DNA of 64,000 nucleotides, from NCBI GenBank assembly GCA_028280285.1, contig JANQMA010000013.1, positions 5,355-69,354 of the forward strand, given 5' to 3'. Under the pieces are notes generated by a model. It was given only the letters and a program-made list of their open reading frames with translations. It did no database searches and was not told the origin of the DNA. The stretch's first letter is position 1; each line of letters begins with the position of its first letter. The translations under genes and the position numbers were made by a program. The stretch is from Candidatus Omnitrophota bacterium (GTDB lineage Bacteria > Omnitrophota > Gorgyraeia > Zapsychrales > Zapsychraceae). Of this stretch, positions 1,748 through 62,488 are shown one piece after another.

Positions 1748-1780
1748 AACCTCTCCTAGTACTACTAGAAGTATAATAGA

Positions 1781-40227: not shown

Positions 40228-40272
40228 TGGGTTTTAGGTTTCAGCCTCCTAACACCCAACACCTAAAACCTT
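40228..40272. repeat. 10-bp perfect inverted repeat GGTTTTAGGT...ACCTAAAACC immediately 3' of surface protein A
   Basis: Stem GGTTTTAGGT (40228-37) / ACCTAAAACC (40263-72); TAGG/CCTA-rich. Confidence 0.4.
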
Positions 40273-43200: not shown

Positions 43201-44107
43201 TTGTATTAAAGCTGGCGCCGATCGGCAGACTCGGTGAAGAAAATGATAAAGGATCACTATCAGGGTCTGTGGCCGTCACAGTAAAACTTAGATTACTTTC
43301 TGCCTCAACATTTTTATTTCCTATAGCATCCATTTGCGGTGGATTGTTGGGCTTGTCATTGACCGTAATGGTAATTGTTTCTGAGTCTGTGCCACCGCGG
43401 CCATCACTTACTTTAAATAGAACTTGATAGATGCCGGATTGATTGTCAGTCGGAGTCCAAGAAAACATCCTGCTATTTGCATCAAAAACAGCGCCTATTG
43501 GCAAAAACTCGGCTGAAAAAGTTAACGGATCATTATTAGGATCATTCGCACTAACCGTAAACGCCAACTCGCTTTCTTCATCAATCTCTTTATTCCCGAT
43601 GGAATCAAGAATAGGGCTCGCATTACCACCGCCACCGCCGGCAACCGTCACAGAACCATTTACTATGTTTTCAACACTGGCCGTTGCTGACTGATCACTT
43701 AAATCAAATTGAAGAAGATTAATAGGGGTTGTGCCCGTGGGTGCTGTATTTTTGATTTTAAATGTAAAAACCAATGCCTCGCCAGATACATCCGACACGG
43801 CGGAAAAGCTGAATTGCGTTACAATAACTTCTCCTTCTTCAGGAGAATGAGAATTACTGGCAAAGTCAGGAAACGTGGAACCATTCTCAACAGAAACAAA
43901 CTCCAAAACATCTTTATCCCAAGACAACTTGGTATCTATCCCGATGACATCAAGGTCATTATCCGAAAATTGAAGAGTTATGGTAATCTCATCACCCGGC
44001 ATACCGGACGCACTCGAAAGCTCTCCATCATAAGCAAAGGCATTAGCCGTCAAGGCAATGAAAAATAAACTAAGGAAAAGTATTTTTTTCACGAAAGCTC
44101 TATTCAC
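40271..44107 (-). CDS. Giant surface protein A (1278 aa): signal peptide, cohesin-like domain, 7 He_PIG (Ig-like) repeats, conserved C-terminal domain
   Basis: Signal peptide MNRAFVKKILFLSLFFIALTANAFA; cohesin-like YDGELSSASGMPGDEITITLQFSD...ALVFTFKIKN...NGSVTV. Repeats of the form P.LD.IGNK.V.E...L.FTVSA.DPD.DPL.FSA..LP.GA.FD..T..F.WTP...Q.G...V.F.VSDG.GGTDSETITITV. It overlaps the next gene (B) by 8 nt. Confidence 0.75.
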   Translation of the reverse strand: MNRAFVKKILFLSLFFIALTANAFAYDGELSSASGMPGDEITITLQFSDNDLDVIGIDTKLSWDKDVLEFVSVENGSTFPDFASNSHSPEEGEVIVTQFSFSAVSDVSGEALVFTFKIKNTAPTGTTPINLLQFDLSDQSATASVENIVNGSVTVAGGGGGNASPILDSIGNKEIDEESELAFTVSANDPNNDPLTFSAEFLPIGAVFDANSRMFSWTPTDNQSGIYQVLFKVSDGRGGTDSETITITVNDKPNNPPQMDAIGNKNVEAESNLSFTVTATDPDSDPLSFSSPSLPIGASFNTTTNTFFWTPLASQVGTHQVTFNVSDGGGGTDSETITITVTAKANTQPVLNSIGDKTVEEEGLLRFTVSGSDADSDPLSFSATNLPVGAIFDTATRIFTWTPTTTQSGAYDVTFTVDDGRDGTDSETITITVTDKFSNTPPVLGAIGNRSVNESEVLNFTVNATDLDGDDVIIEASGLVSWMSFDGSSFSATPGFNDAGSYNVTFTADDGNGGTDAETIVITVNNTNRAPVLDTIGNKSVEEGGNLSFNVTTSDPDGDGVSISTNALEDWMSFDGTSFAANPDVGDEGNYSVTFTASDGSLTDSETITISVGNVNRAPMLDSIGDKNVNEGASLNFTLSGSDPDGDTLIFSAQGLESWMSFVDNTFIANAPELDEDSTYQITFTVSDGELEDFETITLTVKNIVVNAPPVIDGPGDQTIKVGQTLSFTISVFDEDGDSVALALNNLPGDASFDGTTGLFEWTPKEEDIGKYELTITADDGNGGTDTQSFFIEVESEDFVLNADKFPYVRSLDNGTDPVEKFSGPAVAKMLIQYMWWNRFDHPDGPPELFDEQLSNQELLFQFGEPFNYGVNDDLNALDMRGLWKVIQNLDPDFVPYHYNFGMKSLATQEEALNEIAKWVSYPAGGGSDNPFGSGVDGHPVYIPAAVPFGGDYNNWVVVKGVRATDDPFTAEDYGIHGFWINDPAPSGIGENTFVTAEQFVQNYYLPLTKIDPTEQNFNKFVAVVEPPKTENKARVVKAKPRFKKRIENFLQLKTIELENGSEKNVYVRDHIDEDAFVIIQAAVDGIEEQLVPYDEDFAQIFKNTIARKPLYVSSEKGDYYLVAFDKPLDEDKLKERMTRTVTEFKDDDSDSVKLRSGEERKEKKQIFKKLRKTLKKRTVVIAIVDADSGAFREVTWVREPIKYLPVNKRKALRLLSKLLQKDLTRKERREFIRTMMQGAELELVYIEGSFFYPAWKIYYYGQIYLVDQEGHITHPNP

Positions 44108-48845: not shown

Positions 48846-48871
48846 TTTCTAACCTACCCCCGAACCCAACT

Positions 48872-51800
48872 TTATTCAATACTTTCTTCAGTAGTGACAT
48901 TATGGTTGTGATCAACAATGTGGGTCTCACCATTAAAGTACACCCTCCAGCTTGGATAGTATACTTCCCCTGTATTGATCAACTCAGCTTCAACCCCACC
49001 TAACTCACTTACTCCAATCTTATCACTCACTAATTGAAGCGCTGTTTCAAGATCCATCGGTTCATAATCAACCGCCTCTAAACTCCATGTCACTTCCTTT
49101 AATACACCACTCTGGGCATCAACCGCCGCAACAGCAATCACGCCCTTCTGACCCGTTGCCTCATCTTTCACAGTAAACGGCACTATATAGTAGTCGCCAT
49201 TCGCATCTGTAACAACCACCGGCAACTTCGCTCCGACACTCTTAAATACTTCCGCTAACCCTTCATCATATGCTACCACTTCATCCAACACTCCCGCAAG
49301 AGCTGCTGAAACCAACCTGTTAGCTTCCGTTATACTGTAATTGAGCCGATACACACTCTGTGTACTGCCATTAACTTCCACCTCCGTAAATACTTGCTCT
49401 ATATTAATCGGTGTATCAAGTTGTGTCTCTAACTCAGCAACAGATCCTCTGCGACTTCCTTCAATAGCTGCATCTACAATCGATACGTATCGACCATAAT
49501 GAGGATCTTCTATGGCTGTTTCTGTTAGTGCTGTAATATAGTTATCAGCAAATTCCTTTGCTGTCACGTACACTTTTTCTCCTGGCCCCTTAACCTGTGG
49601 ATTATTGATCCAGAAGCCGTTGATTTTATACTTTTCTGCTTCACTTGGATTATCTGTTGCGCGGACACCCGTTACCACCACCCACTGATCATAGCCTCCT
49701 TTAACAGGAACCGCCGCCGGTACATACACAGGATGCCCTTCTACTTGACCGACTTCTGTGGCTAGAAGATTAGCGATATCGCTTAATACTTCTTCTTTGG
49801 AGGCGCGATCAGTAATGACCCAATTGTAATTGTATAAATCACTCTCAGGGCCGTAGATTTGAAGCACTTCTTTTAGCCCCTTAGCGTCTAGGCGATTAAG
49901 TTCACTGTTGGCGGTATAGTTTTCCCATTGTCCTTCATCGAACAGAGTGATTTGATTGTTGTATGTTTCTTCTGCGTCTATGACCGGACCTTCTGGATTA
50001 ACGTCTGCATTCCACCACAGATAATCTAATATCATCTGCGCTGCTGCTGTCGCACTATACTGCTTAATCAATTCATTTTCAGTTATTGTTTCTTCTTGCG
50101 CTGAAAAGCTTGCCTGCACATCTTCAACCGGGTCTAACTCCAAGCCCTTTGAACTGATTGCCGGGACATTAGTCAGGTTGTTGAAAAACACTCCTGTCGT
50201 TGATGTTTTATATTCAACGGTACCCGTTGTCTCCCATGCTCCATCGATCAACGTCCAGAGTTGAGCATATAATGGATCTCCTGTTATTGGAAGACTCAAT
50301 TCAGGGGTTGATTGTGTTTCAACGCCCTCCTCTACTTCTATACCAAAGGTTTGGAGATAGATTCCGTTTTTTGCTGTCCCGATCGCAAACCAATATTTTT
50401 TTGCATCAGGTGACGCATTGAATGTAAAGGTTTGTTTCTCTTCAGTCAATGTTGTTCCGGGCGTTGGTGATTGTATTTCCGATATAACCGGTGGAAGATT
50501 TTCTGTTTGATATTCAACAGAGCCGGTTGTCTTCCACACACCATCGATGAGTGTCCATACTTGGGCATAAACGGGATTACCGGTTAATGGAACTCTAAGT
50601 GCAGGTGTTTCTGTCTCAAGCCCCATGCTAAACGAATGCAGATCAGTTCCACCCGCAACTGTCCCTAAAGCAAACCAGTATTGCCGTGCATCAGGGGATT
50701 CGGTGATTGTGAACACTTGTTTCTTCTCAGACAATGTCGTTTCTGCGGTCGGCGACTTAATCTCAGCCACAATGTCCGGAACATTTTCTGTTTGATATTC
50801 AACGCTGCCGGTTGTCTTCCACACACCATCAATGAGTGTCCACACTTGCGCATAAACAGGATTACCGGTTAATGGAATTTTAACCTCAGGTGTTTGTGTT
50901 TCAAGTTTCATACTAAACGACTGCAGATCAGTACCGCCCGCAACCGTTCCGAGCGCAAACCAGTATTCTGATGCATCAGGCGATTCAGTAATCGTGAATG
51001 CTTGTTTTTTGTTCGATAGCGTTGTTCCAGATGTCGGTGTTTGTATTTCTGAGATCACATCCGGAATATTCTGTGTCGTGTATTCAACAGCACCTGTTGT
51101 TTCCCACACATTATCAATGAGCGTCCACACTTGCGCATAAACAGAATTACCTGTCAACGGCACACTAAGCTCAGGTGTTGCTATAGTTTCCACATCGTTT
51201 TGGACAGGAATACCGAAAGAGTGTAAATCCGTTCCGCCTTCAGTTGTCCCGAGCGCAAACCAATATTGCTCTGCATCAGGCGATGCCGTTATTGTAAAGA
51301 TCTGTTTCTTTTTCGATAGCGCTATCGCCGTTGTTGGCGATTCAATTACAGAAATTATAGACCCCTCCGTAACAGTGATGGTGATCGTTTCCGAATCAGT
51401 CAACTCTCCGTCACTTACATTGAAGGTAACCATGAAGGTACCGGCTTGATCGACGGCCGGCATCCAGTTAAATGTACTTGGAGCAACTTCGTTAAAAGTC
51501 GCGCCTTCCGGTAGATTTTGGGCAGTAATATTTAACGGGTCTAGATCTGGGTCGGTTGCATCTACTATAAAAGTTAATAAGCGCCCCGTTTGTACTGATT
51601 TATTGCCAACCGGCGTGAGAACCGGCGGCCGGTTACCTATCACCGTTATTGTGATTGTTTCAGAATCTGTGCCACCATTACCATCGTCAACACTAAATAT
51701 TACATCATGTGTACCGATATCATTAATGGTTGGCGTCCAGCTAAATGTGCGCGTGGTTGAATCAAAATTCGACCCTGCAGGCGCATCTTCAGCAGAAAAA

Positions 51801-52660
51801 GTCAAATTATCTTCATCTTCATCGGTTGCATTAATAATGAAATTCAAATTATTTCCCACTTGTACTGATTTATTGCCAATGGCTTCCAACACCGGATCAG
51901 TGTTTGGTTTTTCAGTGACTGTGATTGTAATTGTTTCAGAATCAGTGCCGCCATTCCCATCATCAACACTAAACGTTACATCATACGTTCCGACATCATC
52001 AATGGTCGGCGTCCAGCCGAATACTTGCGTATCCACATCAAACTCCGCACCGGTTGGCAGATTTTCTGCCTTAAACGTTAAGTCATCTTCATCCGGATCA
52101 GTCGCACTAATAGTAAAGTTCAAACTGCGTCCAGCCTCCACACTTTGATTGTCAATTGGGTCCAAAACAGGATCTTGATTAACCCCGGTAACCGTAACTT
52201 TTCCGTTAGTAAGATTTGTTGCGCTTGTTGTTTGCGTGTCACTAAAATCATATAAACCAAAATTAAGCGGAGTATCGCCTCCCGGGGCGTTCGCTTTAAT
52301 CGTAAATTTAACCTTTGCCGACTCTCCGCTACCACTTATTGATATTGGAGTAAATCCAAACTGTGTGATAATTAATCTATTATCATCATTCGTATCTATT
52401 AAAGCAGTGACGCCTAGTTGAGCCGTGTCCGCTCCTGCCGAAACACTATCATAGGTAAGCACACTGGAATCAAAATTAATAACTGTATCAATCCCTGCCA
52501 GGGCATCGGTAATATCCCCTGCACCGGTATATGTCACCGAAACTTCAACCGTTTCTCCTGGATTTCCAGATACGCCGGATATTGCCCCATCGAAAGCCAA
52601 AGCTTCCGCCGTAATAATCAAACTGGCAATCATTATTAAAACAAAGAATATTTTTTTCAT
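48872..52660 (-). CDS. Giant surface protein C (about 1262 aa): signal peptide, cohesin-like domain, 3 He_PIG repeats, 5 divergent ~95-aa beta-repeats, conserved C-terminal domain
   Basis: Start reassigned to MKKIFFVLIMIASLIITAEALA (signal peptide). Cohesin-like FDGAISGVSGNPGETVEVSVTYTGAGD.... The C-terminal domain and the tail YYPSWRVYFNGETHIVDHNHNVTTEE are almost identical to those of protein B. Confidence 0.75.
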   Translation of the reverse strand: MKKIFFVLIMIASLIITAEALAFDGAISGVSGNPGETVEVSVTYTGAGDITDALAGIDTVINFDSSVLTYDSVSAGADTAQLGVTALIDTNDDNRLIITQFGFTPISISGSGESAKVKFTIKANAPGGDTPLNFGLYDFSDTQTTSATNLTNGKVTVTGVNQDPVLDPIDNQSVEAGRSLNFTISATDPDEDDLTFKAENLPTGAEFDVDTQVFGWTPTIDDVGTYDVTFSVDDGNGGTDSETITITVTEKPNTDPVLEAIGNKSVQVGNNLNFIINATDEDEDNLTFSAEDAPAGSNFDSTTRTFSWTPTINDIGTHDVIFSVDDGNGGTDSETITITVIGNRPPVLTPVGNKSVQTGRLLTFIVDATDPDLDPLNITAQNLPEGATFNEVAPSTFNWMPAVDQAGTFMVTFNVSDGELTDSETITITVTEGSIISVIESPTTAIALSKKKQIFTITASPDAEQYWFALGTTEGGTDLHSFGIPVQNDVETIATPELSVPLTGNSVYAQVWTLIDNVWETTGAVEYTTQNIPDVISEIQTPTSGTTLSNKKQAFTITESPDASEYWFALGTVAGGTDLQSFSMKLETQTPEVKIPLTGNPVYAQVWTLIDGVWKTTGSVEYQTENVPDIVAEIKSPTAETTLSEKKQVFTITESPDARQYWFALGTVAGGTDLHSFSMGLETETPALRVPLTGNPVYAQVWTLIDGVWKTTGSVEYQTENLPPVISEIQSPTPGTTLTEEKQTFTFNASPDAKKYWFAIGTAKNGIYLQTFGIEVEEGVETQSTPELSLPITGDPLYAQLWTLIDGAWETTGTVEYKTSTTGVFFNNLTNVPAISSKGLELDPVEDVQASFSAQEETITENELIKQYSATAAAQMILDYLWWNADVNPEGPVIDAEETYNNQITLFDEGQWENYTANSELNRLDAKGLKEVLQIYGPESDLYNYNWVITDRASKEEVLSDIANLLATEVGQVEGHPVYVPAAVPVKGGYDQWVVVTGVRATDNPSEAEKYKINGFWINNPQVKGPGEKVYVTAKEFADNYITALTETAIEDPHYGRYVSIVDAAIEGSRRGSVAELETQLDTPINIEQVFTEVEVNGSTQSVYRLNYSITEANRLVSAALAGVLDEVVAYDEGLAEVFKSVGAKLPVVVTDANGDYYIVPFTVKDEATGQKGVIAVAAVDAQSGVLKEVTWSLEAVDYEPMDLETALQLVSDKIGVSELGGVEAELINTGEVYYPSWRVYFNGETHIVDHNHNVTTEESIE

Positions 52661-52706
52661 TATATTTTCCTCGATTGATAACAGCTTTGATCGAATCATA
52701 TATTAT

Positions 52707-52920
52707 TTATTCTTCCACTGGAAATTTATCGATAAATGTCACTGTAAATTGTGCAATTAACGCCGCATCCAGAGCATTGATTCTTCCGTCACCGCTTACA
52801 TCCGCACGCACTTGCGCATCCGGATCAAGCGTAATGAATGTAACGGTATGCTGCGCCGTTAATGCCGCATCAAGCGCATTAATTGTTCCATTATTATTGA
52901 CATCGCCATAAGCGATATCG
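52707..52920 (-). other. Dockerin module (two 22-residue F-hand segments)
   Basis: GDVNNNGTINALDAALTAQHTVTFITLDPDAQVRADVSGDGRINALDAALIAQFTVTFI. Confidence 0.8.
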
Positions 52921-55334
52921 CCGCCACTATTACTGAAACCTGGTGTGGTATCGGGCAAATCAAACTTTTTACGTGTTTGTGAACCATCCGAAACACTGCC
53001 AAAAGACTGATTTGGCAACAAAAATTCTTTTGGCATAGTTGATATCGGGGCGTTATTCCTGTTTAGAAGCTCTATAACCTCACCTTCATTGTTAATTTGA
53101 AAATTTGTATGATAAGGCTGTGAATCGCTGTTAAGATTGGAAGCAAATACAAGAACAAACTCACCTGCACCCAAGGTGTGGGGAATTGGAAATGTCCATA
53201 CGTCTTTTTCATCACGCAGTTTAAGCCCCTTTAATTCAACGCTGAGAGGACCTTTATTATAAATTTCGATCCAGTCCTGAGGGATATTATTCTCATCCGT
53301 GTGACCACCTGTCGTGGTAGCAGATGAAAGCTCATTTATCACAAGCTGATTAGCTTCAGGGAGAGGATCTTCGCTGCTGTCTTCATTGGGATCCCTTGGT
53401 GTCGCATTAGTAAATACTTGAAACGAGACAGCCCCATCCGATGTGCGACCATAAGACTCATCCGGATTAAGGGCAGGTATTGGTATAGGCCCTCCAATAG
53501 GAGTTTTATCAGCATTTAAAAGCTTTAGTTGTTCACCTCCGAGTGCAAGTCCGAAATTAGTATGAAATTCTTGATTACCTTCTCCATTACCTTCGATCCG
53601 ATTTTTATCGGATGCCCAGATCAGTAAACGCTCAAGTCCGCCTAAAAGCTTTTGCGGAAATCTCCAATAAGTTCCTTGTTCATCCTGAAATAAAAGCCCT
53701 TCTAACTCAACTTGTCCACCTGAGGTATTATAAATTTCAATCCAGTCATTTTTCTGCCCATCACTGTCCAGAAAGGTACTATTGTTGTTTGAGACCTCAT
53801 TGATCACAATATTAGTTAATTCTGCCCGTGAAGGATAATCGTTGAAGTTGCGATTAGCGTCATCAGGTGTCGGCGAATTCCATAATCTAAAGGCTCCATC
53901 ATGATTAGAAGAAAGCCCCCAAGAAGTGTCCTCAGCCATTGGACTAACTGGAACAGCTTCAATAATCGTGTTGCCAGCATCTGAATTCATAAAAATAACC
54001 GTTCCGCCCTCATTCTTTTTAATAGAGAAATTGGTATGCGCTTCTTTCTTTCCTTGGGCATTGGTAAAAACCCCATTATCCCCGGAAAGGAAAACAACCA
54101 AATATTTTTGACTTTTAATTTCAATGCCGGAATTAGCCGGGAAAGCCCATATTTTTGAGCCATCGCTAATCTTTAGACCGTCCATAGAAATATCTTTGTC
54201 AGGACTCGTATTGTAAAATTCCACCCAATCATTGTAGTCATTTTCATAGTCACGCAGGCCGCTTTCATTGGCGATATTAATTTCGTTGATAATGATAAGG
54301 TCGGCGTTCGGATTCGCTCCGCCACCACCTGGCGTGCTTGGGTTTTTCTCACCCGGTGTCGGGGTTTGAATATTGGCCAATTGACCGACATCATCAAGCC
54401 GGCCCCAGGAAGTATTCGGGGGGATTCGTTCAACAACAAAGTCATCCACTGTAGGCGTTCCATCCGTATTTAACAGTTTTAGCGTCTCTCCTTCTGCCGT
54501 TATTTCAAAATTAGTATGAAGTCCGCCATTCATTTGTGTGGGGTGTTTATCTGAGGCAAATACAACCAAATGCTGCTTGGGACCAATATCCACATCCGGA
54601 AAGACCCACTGCTTACTGTTATCTGCTACGCGTAATCCTTTAAGGTTAACCGTAATGCTGCCATGTTCATTGTAAAGCTCAAACCAGTCATAAAACTTAC
54701 CGTCCTCAGCCTCATGACCATTTGTATTAGATGAAACTACCTCGTTGATTCTAACAAATTGCGCGTTTTGAACCAGAGGTGTTTGTGTGCTGATGTTAGA
54801 AGCTTTTATACTGGGCGTAGGCATTCGGACAAGTTGCGAACCACCATCCTGCGAACGACCGTATGATTCATCGGTTGCTGCTTGGAGTGTCGTCATACGG
54901 TCAACTTCATCCCCATCTGAATTTTTAAGTATAACCGTATCTCCGTTTGCACTTATTTTAAAAGGTAGGGAGTCACCTGTTAAACAATTGTCTCGATCAT
55001 TGGCCCAAAAAACCTTCCAGTTACCATCTTCACCCATTGTTTGACCTGCTCCAATAATTTGACCAGACGGAATCGTGTAGGTTCCCCCACCAGCATCCTC
55101 CAACACCCAATTTTGTAAATTAACGGCAACACCCCCGGTATTATAAAGTTCAATCCAGTCGGAATGATCCCCGCATGGATCTAAATAATCAGAAGATATT
55201 GTTCCACTATTAGAGGCCATGATCTCATTAATCACAATGTCTGCGTTTGCATTTGTTGATAAGGTAAGGAGAAAAGCTAAAATAAATACGGTCTGTTTAA
55301 TCATCGATTTTACATGGTTTACTTTGTCGTTCAT
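52707..55334 (-). CDS. Secreted protein with five lamin-tail domains (LTD) and a C-terminal type-I dockerin
   Basis: Signal peptide, then five repeats of INE(I/V)...DWIE(L/I)YN...L.GW.L.D......FP...(L/I)..G..LV(V/F). C-terminal duplicated Ca-binding segments DVNNNGTINALDAALTAQ and DVSGDGRINALDAALIAQ (D-x-N/D-x-N/D-G-x-x-N-x-x-D, then AAL.AQ). Confidence 0.8.
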   Translation of the reverse strand: MNDKVNHVKSMIKQTVFILAFLLTLSTNANADIVINEIMASNSGTISSDYLDPCGDHSDWIELYNTGGVAVNLQNWVLEDAGGGTYTIPSGQIIGAGQTMGEDGNWKVFWANDRDNCLTGDSLPFKISANGDTVILKNSDGDEVDRMTTLQAATDESYGRSQDGGSQLVRMPTPSIKASNISTQTPLVQNAQFVRINEVVSSNTNGHEAEDGKFYDWFELYNEHGSITVNLKGLRVADNSKQWVFPDVDIGPKQHLVVFASDKHPTQMNGGLHTNFEITAEGETLKLLNTDGTPTVDDFVVERIPPNTSWGRLDDVGQLANIQTPTPGEKNPSTPGGGGANPNADLIIINEINIANESGLRDYENDYNDWVEFYNTSPDKDISMDGLKISDGSKIWAFPANSGIEIKSQKYLVVFLSGDNGVFTNAQGKKEAHTNFSIKKNEGGTVIFMNSDAGNTIIEAVPVSPMAEDTSWGLSSNHDGAFRLWNSPTPDDANRNFNDYPSRAELTNIVINEVSNNNSTFLDSDGQKNDWIEIYNTSGGQVELEGLLFQDEQGTYWRFPQKLLGGLERLLIWASDKNRIEGNGEGNQEFHTNFGLALGGEQLKLLNADKTPIGGPIPIPALNPDESYGRTSDGAVSFQVFTNATPRDPNEDSSEDPLPEANQLVINELSSATTTGGHTDENNIPQDWIEIYNKGPLSVELKGLKLRDEKDVWTFPIPHTLGAGEFVLVFASNLNSDSQPYHTNFQINNEGEVIELLNRNNAPISTMPKEFLLPNQSFGSVSDGSQTRKKFDLPDTTPGFSNSGGDIAYGDVNNNGTINALDAALTAQHTVTFITLDPDAQVRADVSGDGRINALDAALIAQFTVTFIDKFPVEE

Positions 55335-55491
55335 GACAATAATTCCCTTTTCTTTTTTGAAATGATTAAATCGAAATTTAATTCTTCAGGCAGTATTTTC
55401 CCCCAATACCGCGCAGTCTTCGGATTCTACACTTCAACTATAATTTTCCTATATGAAAACCGTATGGCAATTATGTGAAAATACTGTGAAA

Positions 55492-56766
55492 CTAAAACTT
55501 GACCTGAATGTCTCCCTGATAAATTCGCTCAGGAAACTCTAAGGAGGAGTCGGAATTGATTTTTTTCGCATGGTAGTATGAAAGATTCGCCGTGACATTC
55601 GGCGCTAAACCAATGGTTAACTTACCATCATAGCCTTTAATTCCCGTCTGACCTTCATAGCGGTTAGAATTAGGGAATATGTCCGGAAACGCATCTTGTT
55701 CAAGGTGTGAGTATTGGCCTGTAAACTGCCAGTCGCCAAGGTATTTAACTTTTTGATTACCAAATTTAAGCCCTACTGACCAGGCTTTGTTGATTTTATC
55801 CGGCGCATCGTCATTTCTAAACCAGTCGCCGAATATCGCGATACGTTTAAATTCCTCATGTATCATTTTGCGATAACCTAGTTCAACAGAACCGCCCGAC
55901 ACCCTGAAGTTGTGTGATAAACTACCGGTACAATTCGTCCCGAATAGAGTTAAACCTGAGTTGCTGCATGCTGTGTCGTCGAGCCGCTTTCCTTTTAAAT
56001 GACGAAATTCATAGAAAGTTCCCGCCACCTTTGCATCAAAATCATTTATTTCAACCCCAACGCCCCCTTGTCCATAGATAAGCATCGGATCTTCTGTCGA
56101 AGCAGACAGTTCATCAATAGCCAGGCCGCCGGCATTACCAAATACCGTCACCTTTCTACCTATATTTTTTTCAAGGTGAAGAGCACCACCTTCCGGATTA
56201 ATATCACTGTCCCACAATAATGTTGTCGGTTTCCATATATAATCGTCTGCCTTCCATTTACCACCGACCACTTTCACCCATGGAAACGGTTTGTATTCCA
56301 AAAATCCATAATCAAGGCGTATGTCGGCTTTATCAAAGCTATCAGTAAAAGTCACATTGCCTGAACGTGAATCACCACTGCCGGTTGTAATCCCAATGCC
56401 GCCGGTGATATGTTTATTAATGCGCGAAATCAGACCTATACGCGCACGCAGACGTCCACGCTGACGGCTATCATCAATTCCTTTGCGTTTTTCATATTGA
56501 GTACGAAGACGAATGTCTCCTTTAAGCTCAATGCGCTGTACCCATTGGGGAAGACTAATGAGCCTTCCTTCAACCATATGCTCGGCCACATAACGCTTGG
56601 TTTTGTCTTTTAAAATCGTTGCCTCAATTTCGGACAAATATCCTTTGTCGACTAATTTTTCAATCAAAAGGTCATTATCGGAAATTTGCGCGTAACTTGT
56701 GGAAGGAAATACGGCGGCACCTGCAAGCAGTACGATAAAGATATATTGTAAAATTTTTATTTTCAT
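55492..56766 (-). CDS. Outer-membrane beta-barrel protein (porin-like), C-terminal Phe
   Basis: Signal peptide MKIKILQYIFIVLLAGAAVFPSTSYA, N-terminal helical/coiled segment, alternating amphipathic beta-strand pattern, and C-terminal ...QGDIQVKF (terminal aromatic residue typical of BAM substrates). Confidence 0.6.
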   Translation of the reverse strand: MKIKILQYIFIVLLAGAAVFPSTSYAQISDNDLLIEKLVDKGYLSEIEATILKDKTKRYVAEHMVEGRLISLPQWVQRIELKGDIRLRTQYEKRKGIDDSRQRGRLRARIGLISRINKHITGGIGITTGSGDSRSGNVTFTDSFDKADIRLDYGFLEYKPFPWVKVVGGKWKADDYIWKPTTLLWDSDINPEGGALHLEKNIGRKVTVFGNAGGLAIDELSASTEDPMLIYGQGGVGVEINDFDAKVAGTFYEFRHLKGKRLDDTACSNSGLTLFGTNCTGSLSHNFRVSGGSVELGYRKMIHEEFKRIAIFGDWFRNDDAPDKINKAWSVGLKFGNQKVKYLGDWQFTGQYSHLEQDAFPDIFPNSNRYEGQTGIKGYDGKLTIGLAPNVTANLSYYHAKKINSDSSLEFPERIYQGDIQVKF

Positions 56767-56835: not shown

Positions 56836-59800
56836 TTATTTAAGTATAATGGTTAAATCTGTGGCAGTTAAAACAGTGCTTGCGCTGTCAACAAAGACCC
56901 TCCTCTTTTGCCCCGAGTTAATGGTTGTTCCTTGAAAAATTTCTATGTCTTCAAATATAAAGTAATTTGAATCTTGATCTAAAACGGCATAATCGCTCAA
57001 CACAATCATTGCATTCGTATTATTTTCAATTTCTAAATATTGTGATCCAATCTCTGTTACAACAATATCTTCTTGCGCATTAACCACGCCTCCTAACACA
57101 ATATCGCTGTTATTATCAGTAGATGCACTATCATCCGATGATTGTGATTGATCAGTTTGATCTTCCTGGGTGTTCTCTGCAGCCGTTTCTTCTGTCTGCT
57201 CTGTTGGTTCAGGCATCTGTTCTTCGATAGGTGTTCCCATTTCACTTGACTCTTCCGGCTCTGAAGCAGACGTATTATCTGCGCTTATATCTGTTTGCTC
57301 TGCTTCGGCCTGTACCACTACTTGTGTCTGATATGTCCTCACATCACCGCCTATCCACTCACCATTAACTTTCGTCCACAAACGGGCAAAAACATTGGCA
57401 CCATCCTGCGGCAAACCAGCGGCCAATATATTTAAATCGGTTGTCCCTCCTGAAAAAATAAAATCAGCCGATACACGCGTTGTAAAGATAGAAAATTTGC
57501 GTCCAATATTGAGTTGATATTCCTCGGCATTATTCTCTGCACTCCATGTAAACACTTGCTCTGAACCGCTCAAAGTCGAATTGTCGGCTGGTGTTTGAAT
57601 CTCAGCCGGTTTGGCCGGCTCCACATATTTATTAAAATCCCCCGGTGTCGCCTGATCAAATGATCTAAATATGGTTGATCCATCTGGGAAACGGCCACCG
57701 CTATTGTCACTCGCAATAGTTTGCACTTCAGATAATGTAATCTGATCAATAATATCTATACCATTGCGTTCAACGAGGATGACAGGCTCATCGGATGATA
57801 TTTTAAAACTTGTATGCAAATTCCCTGAAGGATCCCTTTTATCTTTACCCGAGGCATAAAGGATTAAAAACTCTCCCGGACCTATGGAAACACTTGGAAA
57901 CTTCCATTTGGTTAGATTATCTTCACTATCCGTAATGTAGCTGTCCGTCAAATCAATTGTTTGTGTGGTCGTGTTATAAAGTTCAATCCAATCTTGTTCT
58001 TCTAAATCCTCATCAAGCATTTTTTTATCGCCACTATTGACGATTTCATTGATCACTATTTCCGCAGCAGGTGCCGCAGCATCTTCTTCAAAATTAGCAG
58101 TCACGGTAATATTTTTATTTGGAAAGATTGTGTGAACCGGGTTATCAACAATGGTTGAATCGACTGTGAAATTAACAAAACGAAAACCGCGGTTATTCTG
58201 AGCTGCAATCTTAAGTGGTACATCGTTAAAATATTGCCCCGTCCCGTCCAATTGAGCTTTAAATATTTCCGCATCTAGTTGTATCGTTCCACCTTCTTCA
58301 GGAAATGAACGAAAAGTAATCGTACTTGAACCGCTTAAATTAAAAAAGCTTTCAACATAACCACGCATTTCAGCCGGACGGTCTTGAAGAAAACTAACCA
58401 AATGATTAACATTGCTGCGCCAATCACCTTCTGTAAGCAATCCAGCAGCCCATAGATTAAGATGATAAGAAACCCACGGCGCGATTTTTTGCTCGGTTTG
58501 ACGCACAAAGGCAATAGCATTATCGGAACTAAACGTCCCGTTTAAAAGCGCATCAAATTTGCGAATAAAGGCATTTTTAAATTCTATATTCTGAAGAAGC
58601 GGCGCAAGCAATTTGGAATTGTGATTGAGAATACTTAACGAATCGATATGCATAATCGAATCGGCTAATCCAAAAGCTGAATCAAAATCATAATTATAGG
58701 TATGAAATGGTCCCGGTGTCTCCCCTTTTGGGGCATCGCGCCAAAACGCCAAATTGTTTGTTGCAAAATCAATATTTCCGGCAATAATTTGGGCCACCAT
58801 ACCGGAAAGAAAACTCTTTAAATGAAGACGCTGTTTAACATAATTGTAATTTGATTGATTGTTCAGGTTGTTTGCTTGCATAAAATCAATTAAGGCAAAA
58901 AAGTCATCCAAACCTTTTCGTCCGCCAGCTTCAATAGCGCTTTCACTCACTTCTTCATATTCCGCCTGACCAAGATCATAAAAATTTCCGAAAACGGCTG
59001 TGTTATCACTCCGTACAAACACATCCTCAAAATCATTATCCCGCAAAACAATCATGTCCACATCATCATCATCAACTTCCGGATGATTCGCTTCAATCGT
59101 TGAGTTATCACGCTTTTCACTTATATTAACCATACCAAAATTAAATCCATTGATTACAACAAGGATTGCCCCGCCATCAAACCGCATTTCAAAATCTTCA
59201 TCCGTACGGCATAATTCCGCCATAAGCGTATTACGAATACCCAAAGTCGGTTTAAAAAGCGGCTCAGGCTTGGTGGTTTTGACACTATCTTGATTATTGT
59301 TACGCACCTGATAGTGACGATACTTTGTAATCGGCTTATTTAAGACCTCTCCGACAAAATGCGAATGCATCGGATCAACATCTTCATTCGCGGAGATCTT
59401 AAACGGACGCATCCACTCATTACGTGAGCTGGCCCCAATAACTTGAATTTCCGCATCTTGAGAAAAGACTTGCACCCCTTCAGCATTAAAGTATTCGACA
59501 TGCATCGGACGACGCTGTTTTCTTTGTAAATTCGGTGAAGTATCTGGCGTATCCCCACTTCCTGGGAAAATACCGATCCCAGGATCCCATAAATTGTCAT
59601 ATTCCGTTGTAATCGCAAGAACAGGCAGTCCCTTGGCATCAAAATTGATGAAATAAGTCTGCCCGGCCGGTCCACTATTGGCATAGCCGCCTCTAGAGGC
59701 GATCGCGCGGATAGTGGTTGTCTTTGTCACAGTAATCGGTCCGTTATATTTTTGAGAATTTGTGGTAGGAGCTGTTCCGTCAAGCGTGTAAAAAATTTCG

Positions 59801-60393
59801 GCACCTAAAGTGTTTGTTGAAAGACTAACTGTTATGTTGGAATCATAAAATCCACCGCCTTGTGAAAACTGCGGCCGGGAAACCATTGGTGCTCCGTTAG
59901 CCGCTCCTGGTGTAGGCTCACGGAACAAAAGGTGCTCTCCTGTTGTATGCTTACCGAATGATAAGTTACGTGGAATGGCGTCATAATCAATTCTGCTGAC
60001 AATCTGTCCAAACGGGTCCGTTAAAATAACAGCGTCGTCATCATCGGAAAGTCTAAAATTTGTATGGAAATTCGGTGGCGGCGGATCTGTTCTATCTTTG
60101 TTAGATGCAAAAACAACCAGGTATTCACCTGGTTGAATGATATAACTTGGGAAAACCCAGTGGCCAATTGACCCGTCATCATCAGCCAGCCCCCAACCTG
60201 CTAGATCAACAGGGGTTGAGCCATTGTTATAAAGCTCGATCCAATCGGAAGAATCTCCATCTGCATCAAAAAAAATTGTGTTTGATGTAGTGATTTCATT
60301 GACAACAACGTTGGCATGGGCATTCGCTGTAAACACAGCAAAAAATATTGCCAAAAAAGTTGTTAGGAAAGTTGTGCGAGTCCTGCTGTCCAT
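56836..60393 (-). CDS. Secreted LTD / CotH-kinase-like / LTD protein (1185 aa) with beta-repeat and acidic low-complexity linker
   Basis: Signal peptide. LTD1 VVVNEITTSN...DWIELYNNGSTPVDLAGWGL. Fn3/CHB_HEX_C-like FYTLDGTAPT. CotH-like core with HTYNYDFDSAFGL (compare CotH WDxDxxFG). LTD2 IVINEIVNSG...DWIELYNTT. One beta-repeat resembling those of proteins B and C (...ANVFARLWTKVNGEW...). A D/E/S/T-rich linker. Confidence 0.7.
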   Translation of the reverse strand: MDSRTRTTFLTTFLAIFFAVFTANAHANVVVNEITTSNTIFFDADGDSSDWIELYNNGSTPVDLAGWGLADDDGSIGHWVFPSYIIQPGEYLVVFASNKDRTDPPPPNFHTNFRLSDDDDAVILTDPFGQIVSRIDYDAIPRNLSFGKHTTGEHLLFREPTPGAANGAPMVSRPQFSQGGGFYDSNITVSLSTNTLGAEIFYTLDGTAPTTNSQKYNGPITVTKTTTIRAIASRGGYANSGPAGQTYFINFDAKGLPVLAITTEYDNLWDPGIGIFPGSGDTPDTSPNLQRKQRRPMHVEYFNAEGVQVFSQDAEIQVIGASSRNEWMRPFKISANEDVDPMHSHFVGEVLNKPITKYRHYQVRNNNQDSVKTTKPEPLFKPTLGIRNTLMAELCRTDEDFEMRFDGGAILVVINGFNFGMVNISEKRDNSTIEANHPEVDDDDVDMIVLRDNDFEDVFVRSDNTAVFGNFYDLGQAEYEEVSESAIEAGGRKGLDDFFALIDFMQANNLNNQSNYNYVKQRLHLKSFLSGMVAQIIAGNIDFATNNLAFWRDAPKGETPGPFHTYNYDFDSAFGLADSIMHIDSLSILNHNSKLLAPLLQNIEFKNAFIRKFDALLNGTFSSDNAIAFVRQTEQKIAPWVSYHLNLWAAGLLTEGDWRSNVNHLVSFLQDRPAEMRGYVESFFNLSGSSTITFRSFPEEGGTIQLDAEIFKAQLDGTGQYFNDVPLKIAAQNNRGFRFVNFTVDSTIVDNPVHTIFPNKNITVTANFEEDAAAPAAEIVINEIVNSGDKKMLDEDLEEQDWIELYNTTTQTIDLTDSYITDSEDNLTKWKFPSVSIGPGEFLILYASGKDKRDPSGNLHTSFKISSDEPVILVERNGIDIIDQITLSEVQTIASDNSGGRFPDGSTIFRSFDQATPGDFNKYVEPAKPAEIQTPADNSTLSGSEQVFTWSAENNAEEYQLNIGRKFSIFTTRVSADFIFSGGTTDLNILAAGLPQDGANVFARLWTKVNGEWIGGDVRTYQTQVVVQAEAEQTDISADNTSASEPEESSEMGTPIEEQMPEPTEQTEETAAENTQEDQTDQSQSSDDSASTDNNSDIVLGGVVNAQEDIVVTEIGSQYLEIENNTNAMIVLSDYAVLDQDSNYFIFEDIEIFQGTTINSGQKRRVFVDSASTVLTATDLTIILK

Positions 60394-60419: not shown

Positions 60420-60498
60420 TTATCTCTATGATATATATTTAATGTGAACTTTATGTGACAAAGCTGCAAAAGGTGTGTGAATAGTGCAGATTTTTTAT

Positions 60499-61416
60499 TT
60501 ATTCAGATTTATCATTACCTAAATCATTATTTTGCAGTAGTTTATGTAAATCTTCATTTCTCTCAAGCAATTCACGCGTCTGTTTCTGTAAAGCCTCATT
60601 AACCTCGACTAAATCCTTTACCTGATTAATCAAAAAATAATACTCTTCCCGCATTTCACGATTGGAGAAATTTTCTTGACCGGCCGGCTCTTGTGGACTC
60701 GACACATAGTCAGATTCTGGTATTAAGTCATGCTGGGCAATTAAATCCGTCAATTGCTGATCAAAGGTTTCATCCCAGAGCTGAAGTGTTATATGCGCCT
60801 TATTTAATTCCTCATCATAGATCTCAGGATCATCGGCTAATATACGTTTCATTAAAATACTATGATAGGCCAGCAAATGCTCATAATAGCCCAGCATTGT
60901 CGCGACAAGATCTTCGGTCAAAGCTATGGGCTTAATGCCGGCCACTTTGTTTTTGGCCTCTTCAATGTAGTGCATCACCTCAAGCAGCAGGGTTAATGTT
61001 TTTTCATGATCGCGTGTTTTTTGAGCCTCTTCTAAAAGCACGATAAACTGTTCTAAAAAAAGATCCAGCTCCTGATCGATATCAACAATTTCGAGGAGCG
61101 CTTTACCTATTGTTAATTCCGAAGGCCCGACGTTCCTTTGAGGGATAATGGGCACAAGAGCATCTTCTTTTGGCTCCGGATCAAAGGTTTCTTGCCCTTC
61201 TGGTATGCGCTGGGAAATCTCATCCTTACTGATAAAAATAAAAGGAGGTGTTAGATATTCCGAAAAACTTGCCTTAAAATAATTGTCTTTTTCTTTTACG
61301 ACATAAGCATGGATGTCTTCCCCCGACTTCATCCGAAAAGTATCGGCCAAGATATTTGATGTACTCAGGATAAGCATTCCTGTAAAAATTAATGTTATCA
61401 TTGCTTGTGATTTCAT
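60499..61416 (-). CDS. Hypothetical secreted protein with C-terminal coiled coil
   Basis: Signal peptide MKSQAMITLIFTGMLILSTSNILA; no recognisable enzymatic motifs. Confidence 0.5.
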   Translation of the reverse strand: MKSQAMITLIFTGMLILSTSNILADTFRMKSGEDIHAYVVKEKDNYFKASFSEYLTPPFIFISKDEISQRIPEGQETFDPEPKEDALVPIIPQRNVGPSELTIGKALLEIVDIDQELDLFLEQFIVLLEEAQKTRDHEKTLTLLLEVMHYIEEAKNKVAGIKPIALTEDLVATMLGYYEHLLAYHSILMKRILADDPEIYDEELNKAHITLQLWDETFDQQLTDLIAQHDLIPESDYVSSPQEPAGQENFSNREMREEYYFLINQVKDLVEVNEALQKQTRELLERNEDLHKLLQNNDLGNDKSE

Positions 61417-61458: not shown

Positions 61459-62088
61459 ATGCAAAAGATTTCACTCAATCTACTTCTCTTTACTATCGGC
61501 ATTTGCTTCTTTGCCCATGCCCAAAATCTTTCATCTGAGTATTCTCCTTTAAATCCAGACGGCTCTGTGAACGCCCTCATTGAAATACCGGCGGGCACCA
61601 ATGAAAAATGGGAGCTGTCCAAAGACACACAAACAATCGCGCTAGAACATAAAAACGGCAAACCACGCATTATTCAATACCTTGGCTACCCCGGTAATTA
61701 CGGCATGGTACCTCAAACTTTGCTTGCTGAAGATCAAGGCGGTGATGGTGATCCGCTCGACATTCTTGTGATCGGCGCACCCGCCAAACGCGGAGATATT
61801 ATTCCGGCCAAACTGCTTGGCGTTTTAAAACTTCTCGATGATAATGAACAAGATGACAAATTGATTGCCGCCATGCCTGATTCAGTTTTCGCCAATCTTA
61901 ATTCCCTCGAGGAATTAGATCGTGGTTTCCCCGGCACTCTATCAATTCTTCAAACATGGTTTACTTATTATAAGGGGCCGAACGGCGGCATGGTCTTTAA
62001 AGGTTTCGGCACGCGCGAGGAAGCCTTAGCGATTCTTAACAAAGCTTCTGTTCCACAAACTCTTTCTGCTACTCAACAAACCAATTGA
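61459..62088 (+). CDS. ppa: Family I inorganic pyrophosphatase with N-terminal signal peptide
   Basis: PPase signature DGDPLDILV within EDQGGDGDPLDILVIG, plus N-terminal MQKISLNLLLFTIGICFFAHAQ. It is the only plus-strand gene; its 3' end overlaps gspG convergently by 20 nt. Confidence 0.8.
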   Translation: MQKISLNLLLFTIGICFFAHAQNLSSEYSPLNPDGSVNALIEIPAGTNEKWELSKDTQTIALEHKNGKPRIIQYLGYPGNYGMVPQTLLAEDQGGDGDPLDILVIGAPAKRGDIIPAKLLGVLKLLDDNEQDDKLIAAMPDSVFANLNSLEELDRGFPGTLSILQTWFTYYKGPNGGMVFKGFGTREEALAILNKASVPQTLSATQQTN

Positions 62089-62488
62089 CAATATCATCCT
62101 TACTTTGAACGCCATCAGATCCTAAAGAAGACAAGTCATACGACTCGGTATTTTGGACGCCCGGGGCAACATAGACATATTCTCTTTGCCAGGGATCACG
62201 AGGAAGAGCCTTCTTTTTAAGATAGGGCCCATCCCATCCTCCCGCACCGGAAGGCTTAACCAGCAAGGCCTTTAACCCTTCATTAGTTGTGGGATACTGA
62301 CCAACATCCAGTTCGTACATATCAAGCGCAACGGAAAGATTGGCTTCGATGTCTGCCCTGGCCGCAGATATACGGGCCTTCTCGCCCTTGCCGGCCAAAT
62401 TCGGCACAACCATGGCTGCCAAAACACCAATGATAATGACAACCAATAATATTTCAACAAGGGTGAATCCCTTTGTGTTATTTTTCAT
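62069..62488 (-). CDS. gspG: Type II secretion / type IV pilin-like major pseudopilin
   Basis: Prepilin N-terminus KGFTLVEILLVVIIIGVLAAMVVPNL (cleavage/methylation site G|FTLVE); GspG-like body RADIEANLSVALDMYELDVGQYPTTNEGLKALL...GWDGPYL. Confidence 0.85.
   Translation of the reverse strand: MKNNTKGFTLVEILLVVIIIGVLAAMVVPNLAGKGEKARISAARADIEANLSVALDMYELDVGQYPTTNEGLKALLVKPSGAGGWDGPYLKKKALPRDPWQREYVYVAPGVQNTESYDLSSLGSDGVQSKDDIVNWFVE

Follow-up and report, generated by a model that had tools for sequence, protein, structure and literature searches.

An exported LTD-CotH protein paired with an outer-membrane porin in Omnitrophota: a putative phosphate-linked surface module

The LTD-CotH gene at 56836-60393 (minus strand) of the window, the 64-kb stretch of Omnitrophota DNA analysed here, starts with ATG and encodes an 1185-aa exported multidomain protein (ORF call and Pfam) that combines lamin-tail domains (LTDs) with a CotH kinase fold. 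We favour, with moderate confidence, the reading that this protein is part of a PhoB-regulon, phosphate-acquisition-linked surface module in the Omnitrophota, and the results suggest a phosphate-scavenging surface system rather than a spore coat. In the proposed arrangement, a Sec-exported CotH enzyme domain would be carried by two to three LTD beta-sandwich modules and other binding domains, and its gene would head a unit that includes a 16-strand Porin_5 porin, preceded by a PhoB-type Pho box. This pair would be embedded in a larger surface system bearing the same box, made up of an LTDx5-dockerin protein, three cohesin-headed Ig-repeat scaffoldins and exported giant proteins, and flanked by an exported pyrophosphatase. 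The LTDs would attach to a polymer or surface that bears phosphate; the CotH domain would then transfer or release phosphoryl groups outside the cytoplasm; finally, phosphate would pass through the dedicated porin to PstS/PstCAB. The LTD-CotH architecture itself is common, with more than 1000 homologues annotated as 'CotH kinase family protein', relatives in Omnitrophota/PVC-type MAGs and an identical protein in NCBI/Logan (P0001); the novelty lies in the genomic context. No link between CotH and the Pho regulon was found in the literature searched.

The domain layout is largely that of the preliminary description, which had proposed a signal peptide, two LTDs, a CotH core, an adhesin-type beta-repeat in common with the cohesin proteins and an acidic linker; each of these was recovered. 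The N-terminus, MDSRTRTTFLTTFLAIFFAVFTANAHA with N as the next residue, has the features of a typical SPase-I signal peptide (aa 1-27, 60313-60393) that would be cleaved after AHA, and the sole hydrophobic segment of the protein spans aa 13-31. Two stretches match the LTD family (PF00932, E 2.5e-38, 131 bits in total vs a cut-off of 34.3): LTD 1 at aa ~28-140 (59974-60312, best stretch aa 23-137) and LTD 2 at aa ~776-905 (57679-58068, Pfam stretch about aa 776-900), which also matches LTD 1 by BLASTP at 1.5e-21. The C-terminal ~93 residues (aa 1093-1185, 56839-57117) form a putative degenerate LTD that scores below the same Pfam cut-off (E 8.3e-5, 23.4 bits vs 34.3). Two domains had been overlooked earlier: a CHB_HEX_C_1/Fn3_assoc domain (aa 180-241, 59671-59856; Pfam 8.3e-21/6.9e-17), which also matches a hexosaminidase C-domain in the PDB, and an InlB B-repeat-like domain (aa 717-771, 58081-58245; Flg_new_2, 3.3e-6, 27.4 bits vs a cut-off of 23.6). 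The ~95-aa beta-repeat (aa 905-1012, 57358-57681), for which the Pfam search gave no family, matches four copies in the cohesin protein encoded at 48872-52699 and three in that at 44100-48845 (BLASTP, E 3e-7 to 1.6e-4, 28-31% identity). It is followed by the D/E/S/T/Q/P-rich low-complexity linker (aa ~1013-1090 at 57124-57357, or as far as aa ~1103), delimited by a composition scan.

The complete CotH kinase fold occupies aa ~245-690 (58324-59661). The Pfam match (PF08757, E 3e-21, 76.7 bits vs a cut-off of 23.8) covers aa 412-674 and profile positions 73-320 of 322, and a profile search matched B. cereus CotH 5jd9 at 2.5e-16. Similarly, the AF2 model of this region (pLDDT 90.6) has 5jd9 as its top Foldseek match (E 1.4e-13, TM(target) 0.76, 445 columns), and the alignment extends over the bilobal fold including the N-lobe. 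The catalytic loop N540-I-D542-F-A-T-N-N547 (58753-58776) aligns to NFDGFVHN of the B. cereus protein, and D569-F-D571 (58681-58689), which contains the metal-binding, DFG-like Asp, aligns to WDYD. In this alignment D542 corresponds to D228 of B. subtilis, N547 to the catalytic-loop Asn, and D569 to the first D of WDYD and thus to B. subtilis D251; an offset of 4 reproduces both B. subtilis positions, at which the mutants D228Q and D251A are inactive (PMC7821199). The segment PGPFHTYNYDFDSAFGL, previously taken for the catalytic loop, instead holds D569, and the true loop lies 27 residues upstream. Among 40 diverse homologues, N547 and D569 are invariant and D542 is conserved in at least 90%, so the loss of catalytic residues considered earlier was not found; R364, R387 and E426 are conserved residues of the N-lobe. 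Selection on catalysis is indicated, as all three residues (catalytic Asp, Asn, metal-binding Asp) are kept in sets of 40-112 homologues with 20-55% identity. On these sequence grounds, the product is a predicted catalytically competent CotH-family kinase-fold enzyme. This conservation stands against a non-enzymatic, adhesin- or invasin-like surface protein comparable to Mucorales CotH, in which the kinase fold would serve for binding only. That reading, which we regard as very improbable, draws on the many binding modules (LTDs, Ig-like repeat, B-repeat) and on the proposal that Omnitrophota, with their adhesin-like giant proteins, live as epibionts or predators (PMC10066038).

Compared to the Bacillus CotH spore-coat Ser kinase (PF08757; 5jd9/5jda), the protein has the same atypical kinase fold and the D228/D251 equivalents, but identity is only ~15%, the lineage is diderm and non-sporulating, the protein is exported through a signal peptide, and the chain is ~830 aa longer through the LTD, CHB_HEX_C, B-repeat and Ig-like modules. 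No CotB/CotG-type substrates lie nearby, and the gene context is one of a porin and phosphate genes, not of sporulation. A spore-coat CotH in the strict sense (cytoplasmic, in the mother cell) was rejected on the signal peptide, the Omnitrophota/PVC-type relatives and the porin and cohesin/dockerin neighbours. The earlier placing of LTD-CotH architectures in spore coats was mistaken; documented cases come from cellulosomes (Cthe_0239 of C. thermocellum; PMC6083626) and from many diderm phyla.

Immediately downstream, at 55492-56766 (minus strand), lies the porin-like barrel noticed in the preliminary description. It is a Porin_5 outer-membrane porin (PF16930, E 1.9e-38) with 16 strands and an N-terminal helical stalk in the AF2 model (pLDDT 84.8), and a conserved Arg cluster is present. 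Its best PDB match is OmpM1, followed by OmpF/PorB, and OprP is absent from the top 50 PDB structure matches; thus, phosphate selectivity is putative. Assignment to the phosphate-selective porin O/P family (PF07396) was rejected in view of the PF16930 match and the OmpM1/OmpF-like fold, and the barrel has the fold of a general porin, not of a secretion or anchor barrel. The order of a long-form CotH gene followed by Porin_5 is found in seven Omnitrophota-type loci (the window, L002, L003, L004, L005, L017 and L021).

A short-form CotH gene lies between Porin_O_P (PF07396) and pstS in five sister loci (L006, L008, L012, L022, L023), with PhoB after Porin_O_P, CotH and PstS in three of them, and in a sixth (L013) CotH is followed by pstS alone. 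In L002, a phoBR-pstS-porin-phoU-pstCAB-phoU array directly precedes the CotH gene, and Porin_5 paralogues stand at the head of pstSCAB-phoU operons, as P0131 does in a phoBR-Porin_5-pstSCAB-phoU operon. Linkage to pst/pho genes is present for the L002 orthologue and all informative sister-clade loci, whereas no pst or pho gene lies within the 64-kb window, where the box, the porin and the exported pyrophosphatase carry the phosphate link. The strongest conserved partner of CotH is the porin together with phosphate-uptake genes, not adhesins. This arrangement of porin, secreted enzyme and phosphate-binding protein under a Pho box resembles Pho-regulon outer-membrane modules (OprO/OprP, pstSCAB-phoU, secreted phosphoesterases). 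The sister loci carry a true Porin_O_P family porin, as in the OprO/OprP modules, whereas the window porin is Porin_5; the secreted enzyme differs too, being of the kinase fold and not a phosphatase, nuclease or phosphodiesterase.

The phosphate context is lineage-specific, as genes of this architecture in other phyla have glycoside hydrolases for neighbours. An alternative is that the protein is an accessory enzyme directed at glycans or the cell wall, such as a kinase or phosphotransferase of polysaccharides that would act when host or prey envelopes or polymers are attacked, by analogy with CotH proteins of cellulosomes and of polysaccharide-utilisation contexts. The CHB_HEX_C/Fn3_assoc module is typical of glycosidases, same-architecture homologues lie among T9SS GH43 and GH10 genes (L018) or beside GH2 and a hybrid two-component regulator (L020), and CotH occurs in cellulosomes. 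However, no CAZyme gene is found in the window cluster or in any of 13+ Omnitrophota loci, whose conserved partners are porins and phosphate-uptake genes, and we consider this explanation unlikely.

Another line of evidence for the phosphate-linked reading is a Pho-box-like motif. The direct repeat TTTGTCACATAAAGTTCACATTA (60436-60462, minus strand, PWM 28.6 bits) lies ~50 nt upstream of the CotH ATG, with an additional phased half-site 22 nt upstream, and AGTTTCACAGTATTTTCACATAA (55471-55493, minus strand, 26.4 bits) 140 nt upstream of the LTD-dockerin gene; an array of three to four phased half-sites (40103-40147, minus strand) precedes the gene of a 3561-aa giant protein. The motif TCACA-N6-TCACA agrees with the way a PHO box is defined, by direct repeats of 11 nt (E. 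coli CTGTCAT, Streptomyces GTTCACC; PMC4415409). It occurs five times in the window vs 0.07 expected, and 0 of 100 shuffles reached five. Across 323 kb surveyed, 14 exact sites were found, of which 13 lie in non-coding DNA, 42-431 nt ahead of a gene and on its strand; pst operons and CotH, LTD-dockerin and giant genes are among those that follow. The same box lies upstream of pstSCAB-phoU (L014), of pstC and a porin-pstS pair (L002), and of Porin_O_P-CotH-pstS in L006, L012 and L023. PWM sites outside the training set precede Porin_O_P in L012, an LTD gene in L004 and the pyrophosphatase gene in L005, and the PWM gave no site in L015 or L016, which carry porin paralogues without pst context. 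Upstream of CotH itself, the box is strong in only three of the seven long-form loci and weak in L002 (10.7 bits); the PWM found none in L005 and L021, and the L017 locus includes no sequence upstream of the gene. Weak sites also occur upstream of the short-form L007 and L024 genes. A PhoB-type box ahead of the CotH-porin unit predicts induction under phosphate starvation, although an OmpR-family regulator other than PhoB could be the one that uses this motif.

The cohesin/dockerin genes reported earlier in the same co-directional block were confirmed by Pfam: a protein with five LTD stretches (4e-68) and a type I dockerin (Dockerin_1, 5.8e-13) at 52707-55334, and three tandem cohesin-headed Ig-repeat (He_PIG/Big_9) proteins with a shared C-terminal domain at 40271-52699, all on the minus strand. 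The co-occurrence of this gene order, raised in the preliminary description, was found in five genomes, where CotH, Porin_5, LTDxN-dockerin and cohesin genes follow one another; L017 has CotH-Porin_5-cohesin without the LTD-dockerin gene (46-55% identity). The claim that LTD-CotH belongs to this surface assemblage thus gains from conserved synteny and from the LTD and ~95-aa repeat held in common, but the 1185-aa protein has no Dockerin_1 or Cohesin match in Pfam, which leaves physical membership putative. The same synteny, common modules and intact catalytic residues would fit a structural or regulatory kinase of a cohesin-dockerin adhesin assemblage, phosphorylating surface proteins as CotH does CotB/CotG in the spore coat, independently of phosphate and with the barrel unrelated or anchoring. 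In addition, dockerin-bearing CotH proteins are cellulosome components of undefined function (PMC6083626, PMC12484212, PMC12774918). Cellulosomal CotH proteins (C. thermocellum CseP Cthe_0044 and Cthe_0239, the latter LTD-LTD-Fn3-CotH-dockerin, and anaerobic-fungal CotH) likewise combine extracellular LTD/Fn3_assoc/CotH with a cohesin-dockerin system; unlike them, LTD-CotH comes without a dockerin from a Gram-negative-type host, with no CAZymes, a dedicated porin gene and a Pho-box-like promoter element. Against the adhesin-kinase explanation, besides the missing dockerin and cohesin and the Pho-like boxes upstream, sister-clade orthologues have no cohesin/dockerin neighbours but do have porin and pstS (pstS alone in L013), a substrate-like S/T/D/E-rich segment is found only in the CotH protein itself, and an ATP source is lacking outside the cell. 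We therefore hold it possible but rather doubtful.

As to the reaction itself, extracellular phosphoesterases are the typical fusion partners of LTDs (Mans 2004, as cited in PMC6085458). Like Shewanella ExeM and other LTD-bearing extracellular nucleases/phosphoesterases, the protein carries an N-terminal LTD on an exported enzyme that would act on phosphate-containing substrates, but where those have an EEP, metallo-beta-lactamase or calcineurin-like catalytic domain, it has CotH. Secreted CotH is elsewhere paired with VTC-like polyphosphate polymerase genes (L019; 10.1101/2024.04.20.589940), and the CotH-DUF4956-VTC triads (S. intermedius pel operon, C. perfringens NELoc-2, L019) similarly tie it to (poly)phosphate metabolism; there the partners are the polymerase and a membrane protein, and here porin, PstS/Pst and exported pyrophosphatase. 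On the other hand, an extracellular ATP-consuming kinase is paradoxical under phosphate starvation. To our knowledge, no CotH member releases phosphate.

Extracellular CotH is widespread (cellulosomes, Bacteroidota, Ignavibacteria, streptococcal pel operons and elsewhere), its function is undefined in recent papers, and a kinase outside the cell is deemed puzzling (PMC12774918, PMC12484212). The conserved pairing of CotH with phosphate porins and PstS, taken with the Pho-box signature, offers a concrete, testable physiological context, phosphate starvation, and candidate partners in the porin, the exported pyrophosphatase and the LTD-display proteins. The results further suggest that phosphate regulates some of the surface and giant proteins of the Omnitrophota, a point relevant to the host-dependent lifestyle proposed for this uncultured phylum. 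A bolder and distinctly tentative extension would be a PhoB-controlled surface organelle harvesting phosphorus from polymers or host/prey cells, placing secreted CotH and bacterial LTDs in an extracellular phosphorus economy. LTD capture modules might be held on Ig-repeat scaffoldins via cohesin-dockerin contacts and act with a CotH-fold phosphotransferase, the pyrophosphatase, the porin and giant proteins. If true, this would give non-spore CotH and LTD a first physiological role and the Omnitrophota giant genes a first regulatory cue.

The exported family-I inorganic pyrophosphatase (61459-62088, plus strand; Pfam 4.6e-33) has a signal peptide and is divergent from the cluster, and orthologues with signal peptides lie beside the cluster in L003, L005 and L021. 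Upstream of the CotH gene, a conserved 305-aa exported helical protein is encoded at 60499-61416 (minus strand), with weak orthologues in L003-L005.

The ORF at 56836-60393 on the reverse strand starts with ATG and encodes an exported multidomain protein of 1185 aa (the CotH protein), whose N-terminus is a typical SPase-I signal peptide (…FFAVFTANAHA/NVVVNE) and whose sole hydrophobic segment spans aa 13-31. Pfam places two lamin-tail domains (LTDs) at aa 23-137 and about 776-900 (E 2.5e-38), a CHB_HEX_C_1/Fn3_assoc module at aa 180-241 (E 8e-21), CotH PF08757 at aa 412-674 (E 3e-21) and a divergent InlB B-repeat at aa 717-771 (E 3.3e-6); the signal peptide, LTDs and CotH core of the preliminary description are all present. 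No Pfam family covers aa 905-1012; BLASTP relates this segment to repeats of ~95 aa in two cohesin proteins, four copies in 48872-52699 and three in 44100-48845 (E 3e-7 to 1.6e-4), so that the repeat type earlier described as common to these proteins is indeed shared. An acidic linker follows, with no second such segment in the cluster, and the final ~93 aa, which match the LTD family below threshold (E 8.3e-5), are probably a degenerate third LTD. An NCBIfam search of the CotH protein, the porin encoded downstream and the 305-aa protein encoded upstream returned zero matches.

A profile built from 40 homologues matched B. cereus CotH (5jd9) at 2.5e-16; this structure was reached with the family profile only, since a single-sequence phmmer search of the PDB found the hexosaminidase C-domain alone. 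The AF2 model of aa 240-700 (73 input sequences; pLDDT 90.6, pTM 0.91) has 5jd9 and 5jda as its top PDB matches (E 1.4e-13, TM 0.76), followed far more weakly by HipA and Fam20C. Because the match covers nearly the entire chain, the N-lobe is present though it lies outside the Pfam match. In the profile alignment, N540-I-D542-FATN-N547 pairs with B. cereus NFDGFVHN, and Y568-D569-F-D571 pairs with WDYD; chain indices D224 and D247 become, with 4 added, B. subtilis D228 and D251, and the substitutions D228Q and D251A inactivate B. subtilis CotH (PMC7821199, from which the residue roles are taken). All 40 homologues (24-52% identity) retain N547 and D569, and D542 shows conservation of at least 90%. 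On the basis of this alignment and conservation, PGPFHTYNYDFDSAFGL, which had been read as the catalytic-loop region, is the stretch holding the metal-binding Asp, with the catalytic loop 27 residues N-terminal to it. The CotH identity itself is confirmed by the PF08757 match and the profile match to 5jd9, and the retention of D542, N547 and D569 contradicts the loss of catalytic residues that would mark a pseudokinase.

The LTD-CotH architecture is already known and annotated. The exact protein sequence is present in NCBI and Logan (entry P0001), and 1404 proteins match it at E ≤ 0.001. Most of the matches listed have the LTD-Fn3_assoc/CHB_HEX_C-CotH(-LTD) architecture, are named 'CotH kinase family protein' or 'lamin tail domain-containing protein', and come from Omnitrophota, Bacteroidales, Ignavibacteria, KSB1, Clostridiales and Verrucomicrobia; the nearest genomes are MAGs, either of Candidatus Omnitrophota or labelled 'uncultured Planctomycetia'. 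Dockerin-bearing LTD-CotH proteins such as C. thermocellum Cthe_0239 and CseP are cellulosome components (PMC6083626), and the function of cellulosomal CotH is still called undefined (PMC12484212, PMC12774918). Unlike these proteins, the CotH protein of the window carries neither dockerin nor cohesin. The new element is its gene context.

The barrel gene noted downstream of the CotH gene, 55492-56766, encodes a Porin_5 protein (Pfam, 1.9e-38). Its model (pLDDT 84.8) shows a helical stalk at the N-terminus and a barrel of 16 strands, and best matches OmpM1, then OmpF, OmpU and PorB. From this model, the protein is predicted to be a diffusion porin and not a secretion or usher barrel. The fold search did not support an OprP-like identity, its top matches being OmpM1 and OmpF, so phosphate selectivity would be suggested by context and a near-invariant arginine cluster only; the Arg ladder of the porin comprises R86, R88, R101, R103, R107, R109 and R134.

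In related loci (L002-L024), the closest relatives of the CotH protein (40-55% identity) fall into two forms. The long form (~1170-1280 aa) has an extension after LTD2 and is always followed by Porin_5 (window, L002, L003, L004, L005, L017 and L021); an LTDxN-dockerin gene and then cohesin-Ig genes usually come next, and upstream there are usually a gene for an exported helical protein of ~305 aa and a pyrophosphatase gene in divergent orientation. The short form (~920 aa) ends after LTD2 and occurs in the order Porin_O_P-CotH-PstS (L006, L008, L012, L022 and L023), where the porin belongs to the phosphate-selective family Porin_O_P, PF07396 (6.5e-54), and PhoB follows in three of the five loci. 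The gene order CotH-Porin_5(-LTD-dockerin-cohesin) is conserved in long-form loci; the short-form sister clade has no cohesin or dockerin neighbours. In L013 the order is CotH-PstS, and this is the only sufficiently flanked locus in which no porin gene adjoins the CotH gene. About half of the distinct loci have genes for phosphate uptake or regulation right beside the CotH gene; in L002, the long-form CotH gene directly follows phoB-phoR-(pstS, Porin_5 paralogue)-phoU-pstC-pstA-pstB-phoU. Similarly, the Porin_5 paralogue P0131 (41% identity) is first in a phoBR-Porin_5-pstSCAB-phoU operon flanked by ppk and a phosphodiesterase gene, and pst context is absent around two remoter paralogues. Glycoside-hydrolase surroundings are seen for CotH homologues in other phyla and, together with the CHB_HEX_C module, suggest a glycan-directed role, yet no CAZyme is linked to the CotH gene in Omnitrophota.

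Further details of these loci were observed. Two PstS types are present: the CotH-linked proteins (L002, L006, L008, L012 and L013) are 54-72% identical among loci and 25-31% identical to PstS of the L014 operon. In L017, a 227-aa protein that combines a cohesin with a partial dockerin/EF-hand segment (4627-5310), and which may be an adaptor, is encoded directly after CotH-Porin_5. In L008, a 556-nt gap with GCGCTATGCG repeats separates the porin and CotH genes, and directly upstream of Porin_O_P-CotH-PstS lies a gene (135-6713) for a 2192-aa giant with a weak VTC (polyphosphate polymerase-like) match (27 bits vs a cut-off of 23). In S. intermedius, CotH is paired with a DUF4956 gene and one for a VTC-like polyphosphate polymerase (10.1101/2024.04.20.589940), and the same pairing is found for secreted CotH genes in L019 and C. 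perfringens.

The upstream regions share a direct repeat with an 11-bp period and the consensus ttTCACA.aAa.tTCACATta. Its core, TCACA-N6-TCACA (the box), has five matches in the window, where 0.07 would be expected and where none of 100 shuffles gave more than 1; all five are on the gene strand. One (60443-60458) precedes the start codon of the CotH gene by 50 nt and another (55474-55489) that of the 5xLTD-dockerin gene (52707-55334) by 140 nt; two (40117-40143) belong to an array of 3-4 phased units (40103-40147) ahead of a 3561-aa giant gene, and the fifth (47536-47551) is inside the ORF 44100-48845. The intragenic match scores <12 bits with the extended PWM and is probably a chance match or inert; allowing one mismatch added only intragenic matches at chance level. 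Non-redundant sequence totalling 323 kb holds 14 exact sites; 13 of them fall outside coding sequence, 42-431 nt ahead of a gene on the same strand. Boxes are found upstream of Porin_5-pstSCAB-phoU (L014), of pstC and in the divergent porin-pstS/phoU region (L002), of Porin_O_P (L006, and L023 in a later metagenome scan), of CotH (L003, L004), of LTD-dockerin (L004), of a PGK-domain giant (L003, 42 nt) and of a 2858-aa ORF after pstS (L013). The PWM built from exact sites also recovered sites outside the training set, ahead of Porin_O_P in L012 (18.5 bits), of a second LTD gene in L004 (21.5 bits) and of the L005 exported pyrophosphatase (16.4 bits, about 70 nt upstream), and found zero sites in L015 and L016, which hold Porin_5 paralogues without pst context. 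Upstream of long-form CotH the box scores 28.6 bits in the window, 24.4 in L004 and 21.3 in L003, is weak in L002 (10.7) and is absent from L005 and L021 in the PWM scan; weak sites precede the short-form genes of L024 (14.3) and L007 (12.9). PHO boxes are tandem 11-nt units, with CTGTCAT in E. coli and GTTCACC in Streptomyces (PMC4415409). The architecture of the box fits this definition, and it is a putative PhoB site. A terminator and promoter scan was uninformative, its terminator-like sites being intragenic and at chance level.

Between 40271 and 52699 (reverse strand) lie genes for three tandem proteins, each with an N-terminal signal peptide and cohesin; the cohesin of 44100-48845 was missed by Pfam at full length and scored 4.3e-9 with the N-terminal 170 aa. 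All three share a conserved ~100-aa C-terminal domain (…ELINTGEVYYPSWRV.FNGETHIVDHNHN…) with zero Pfam matches, which may be a cell-anchoring module. According to the preliminary description, the CotH protein belongs to the cohesin-dockerin surface assemblage. This is partly compatible with a phosphate-related role, because the LTD-dockerin/cohesin unit bears the same box; membership itself is weakened by the lack of a dockerin or cohesin in the protein and of such neighbours throughout the sister clade.

The phosphate-related role also has counterparts in the flanking genes. The divergent gene 61459-62088 (+) encodes a family-I inorganic pyrophosphatase with a clear signal peptide (MQKISLNLLLFTIGICFFAHA/QN), a predicted exported PPi-to-phosphate enzyme, and signal-peptide-bearing orthologues adjoin the CotH cluster in L003, L005 and L021. 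Extracellular phosphoesterases are described as the characteristic fusion partners of LTDs (Mans 2004, as cited in PMC6085458). Two giant ORFs, 22934-29443 (2169 aa) and 29364-40049 (3561 aa), both on the reverse strand, overlap by 80 nt. Each has a signal or TM segment at its N-terminus, and the two have in common an N-terminal domain of ~400 aa (45% identity; zero Pfam matches) and the C-terminal motif ITP(I/V)N..LPQLLGLN. The box array sits in the 221-nt gap before the 3561-aa gene and, given the box before the PGK-domain giant of L003, Omnitrophota giant genes may be phosphate-regulated. Of phosphoglycerate kinase, the 2169-aa protein matches the N-domain only (positions 3-128 of the 379 in the profile), and it also matches HATPase_c; regeneration of ATP for an extracellular kinase by this protein is unsupported, as the nucleotide-binding half of PGK was not seen.

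Based on the results presented above, PhoB would induce the CotH unit, the LTDs may tether the protein to a phosphate-bearing polymer or surface assemblage, the CotH domain might transfer or release phosphoryl groups outside the cytoplasm, and phosphate could enter via Porin_5 and then PstS/PstCAB. The chemistry is the weak link of this role: a kinase that spends ATP outside the cell fits poorly with phosphate starvation, and we know of no CotH enzyme that releases phosphate. In the literature searched, nothing relevant was found on CotH with the Pho regulon, on PF16930/Porin_5 or on LTD with Pho, and the Omnitrophota giant-gene papers mention dockerin-bearing giants without CotH, lamin or porin. 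Neither the coupling of LTD-CotH to porins, PstS and a Pho-box signature nor a CotH gene embedded in a cohesin-dockerin/LTD/giant cluster with the same box signature was found there.

Three other genes of the window deserve mention. The 305-aa protein (60499-61416, reverse strand) is exported, mostly helical or coiled-coil and without family matches; its weakly conserved orthologues (26-30% identity) lie immediately upstream of CotH in L003-L005, and its gene may be a separate transcription unit, since it is positioned upstream of the Pho-like box. A spore-photoproduct-lyase-family radical SAM gene (SPL, 5.6e-32) is present at 16331-17698 (reverse strand), in a lineage not known to us to sporulate. 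Finally, a lone T2SS GspG-type pseudopilin gene (62069-62488, reverse strand) converges on the pyrophosphatase gene, with a 20-nt overlap at its 3' end; Omnitrophota are reported to have a T2SS-like locus upstream of giant genes (10.1101/2023.11.21.568195).
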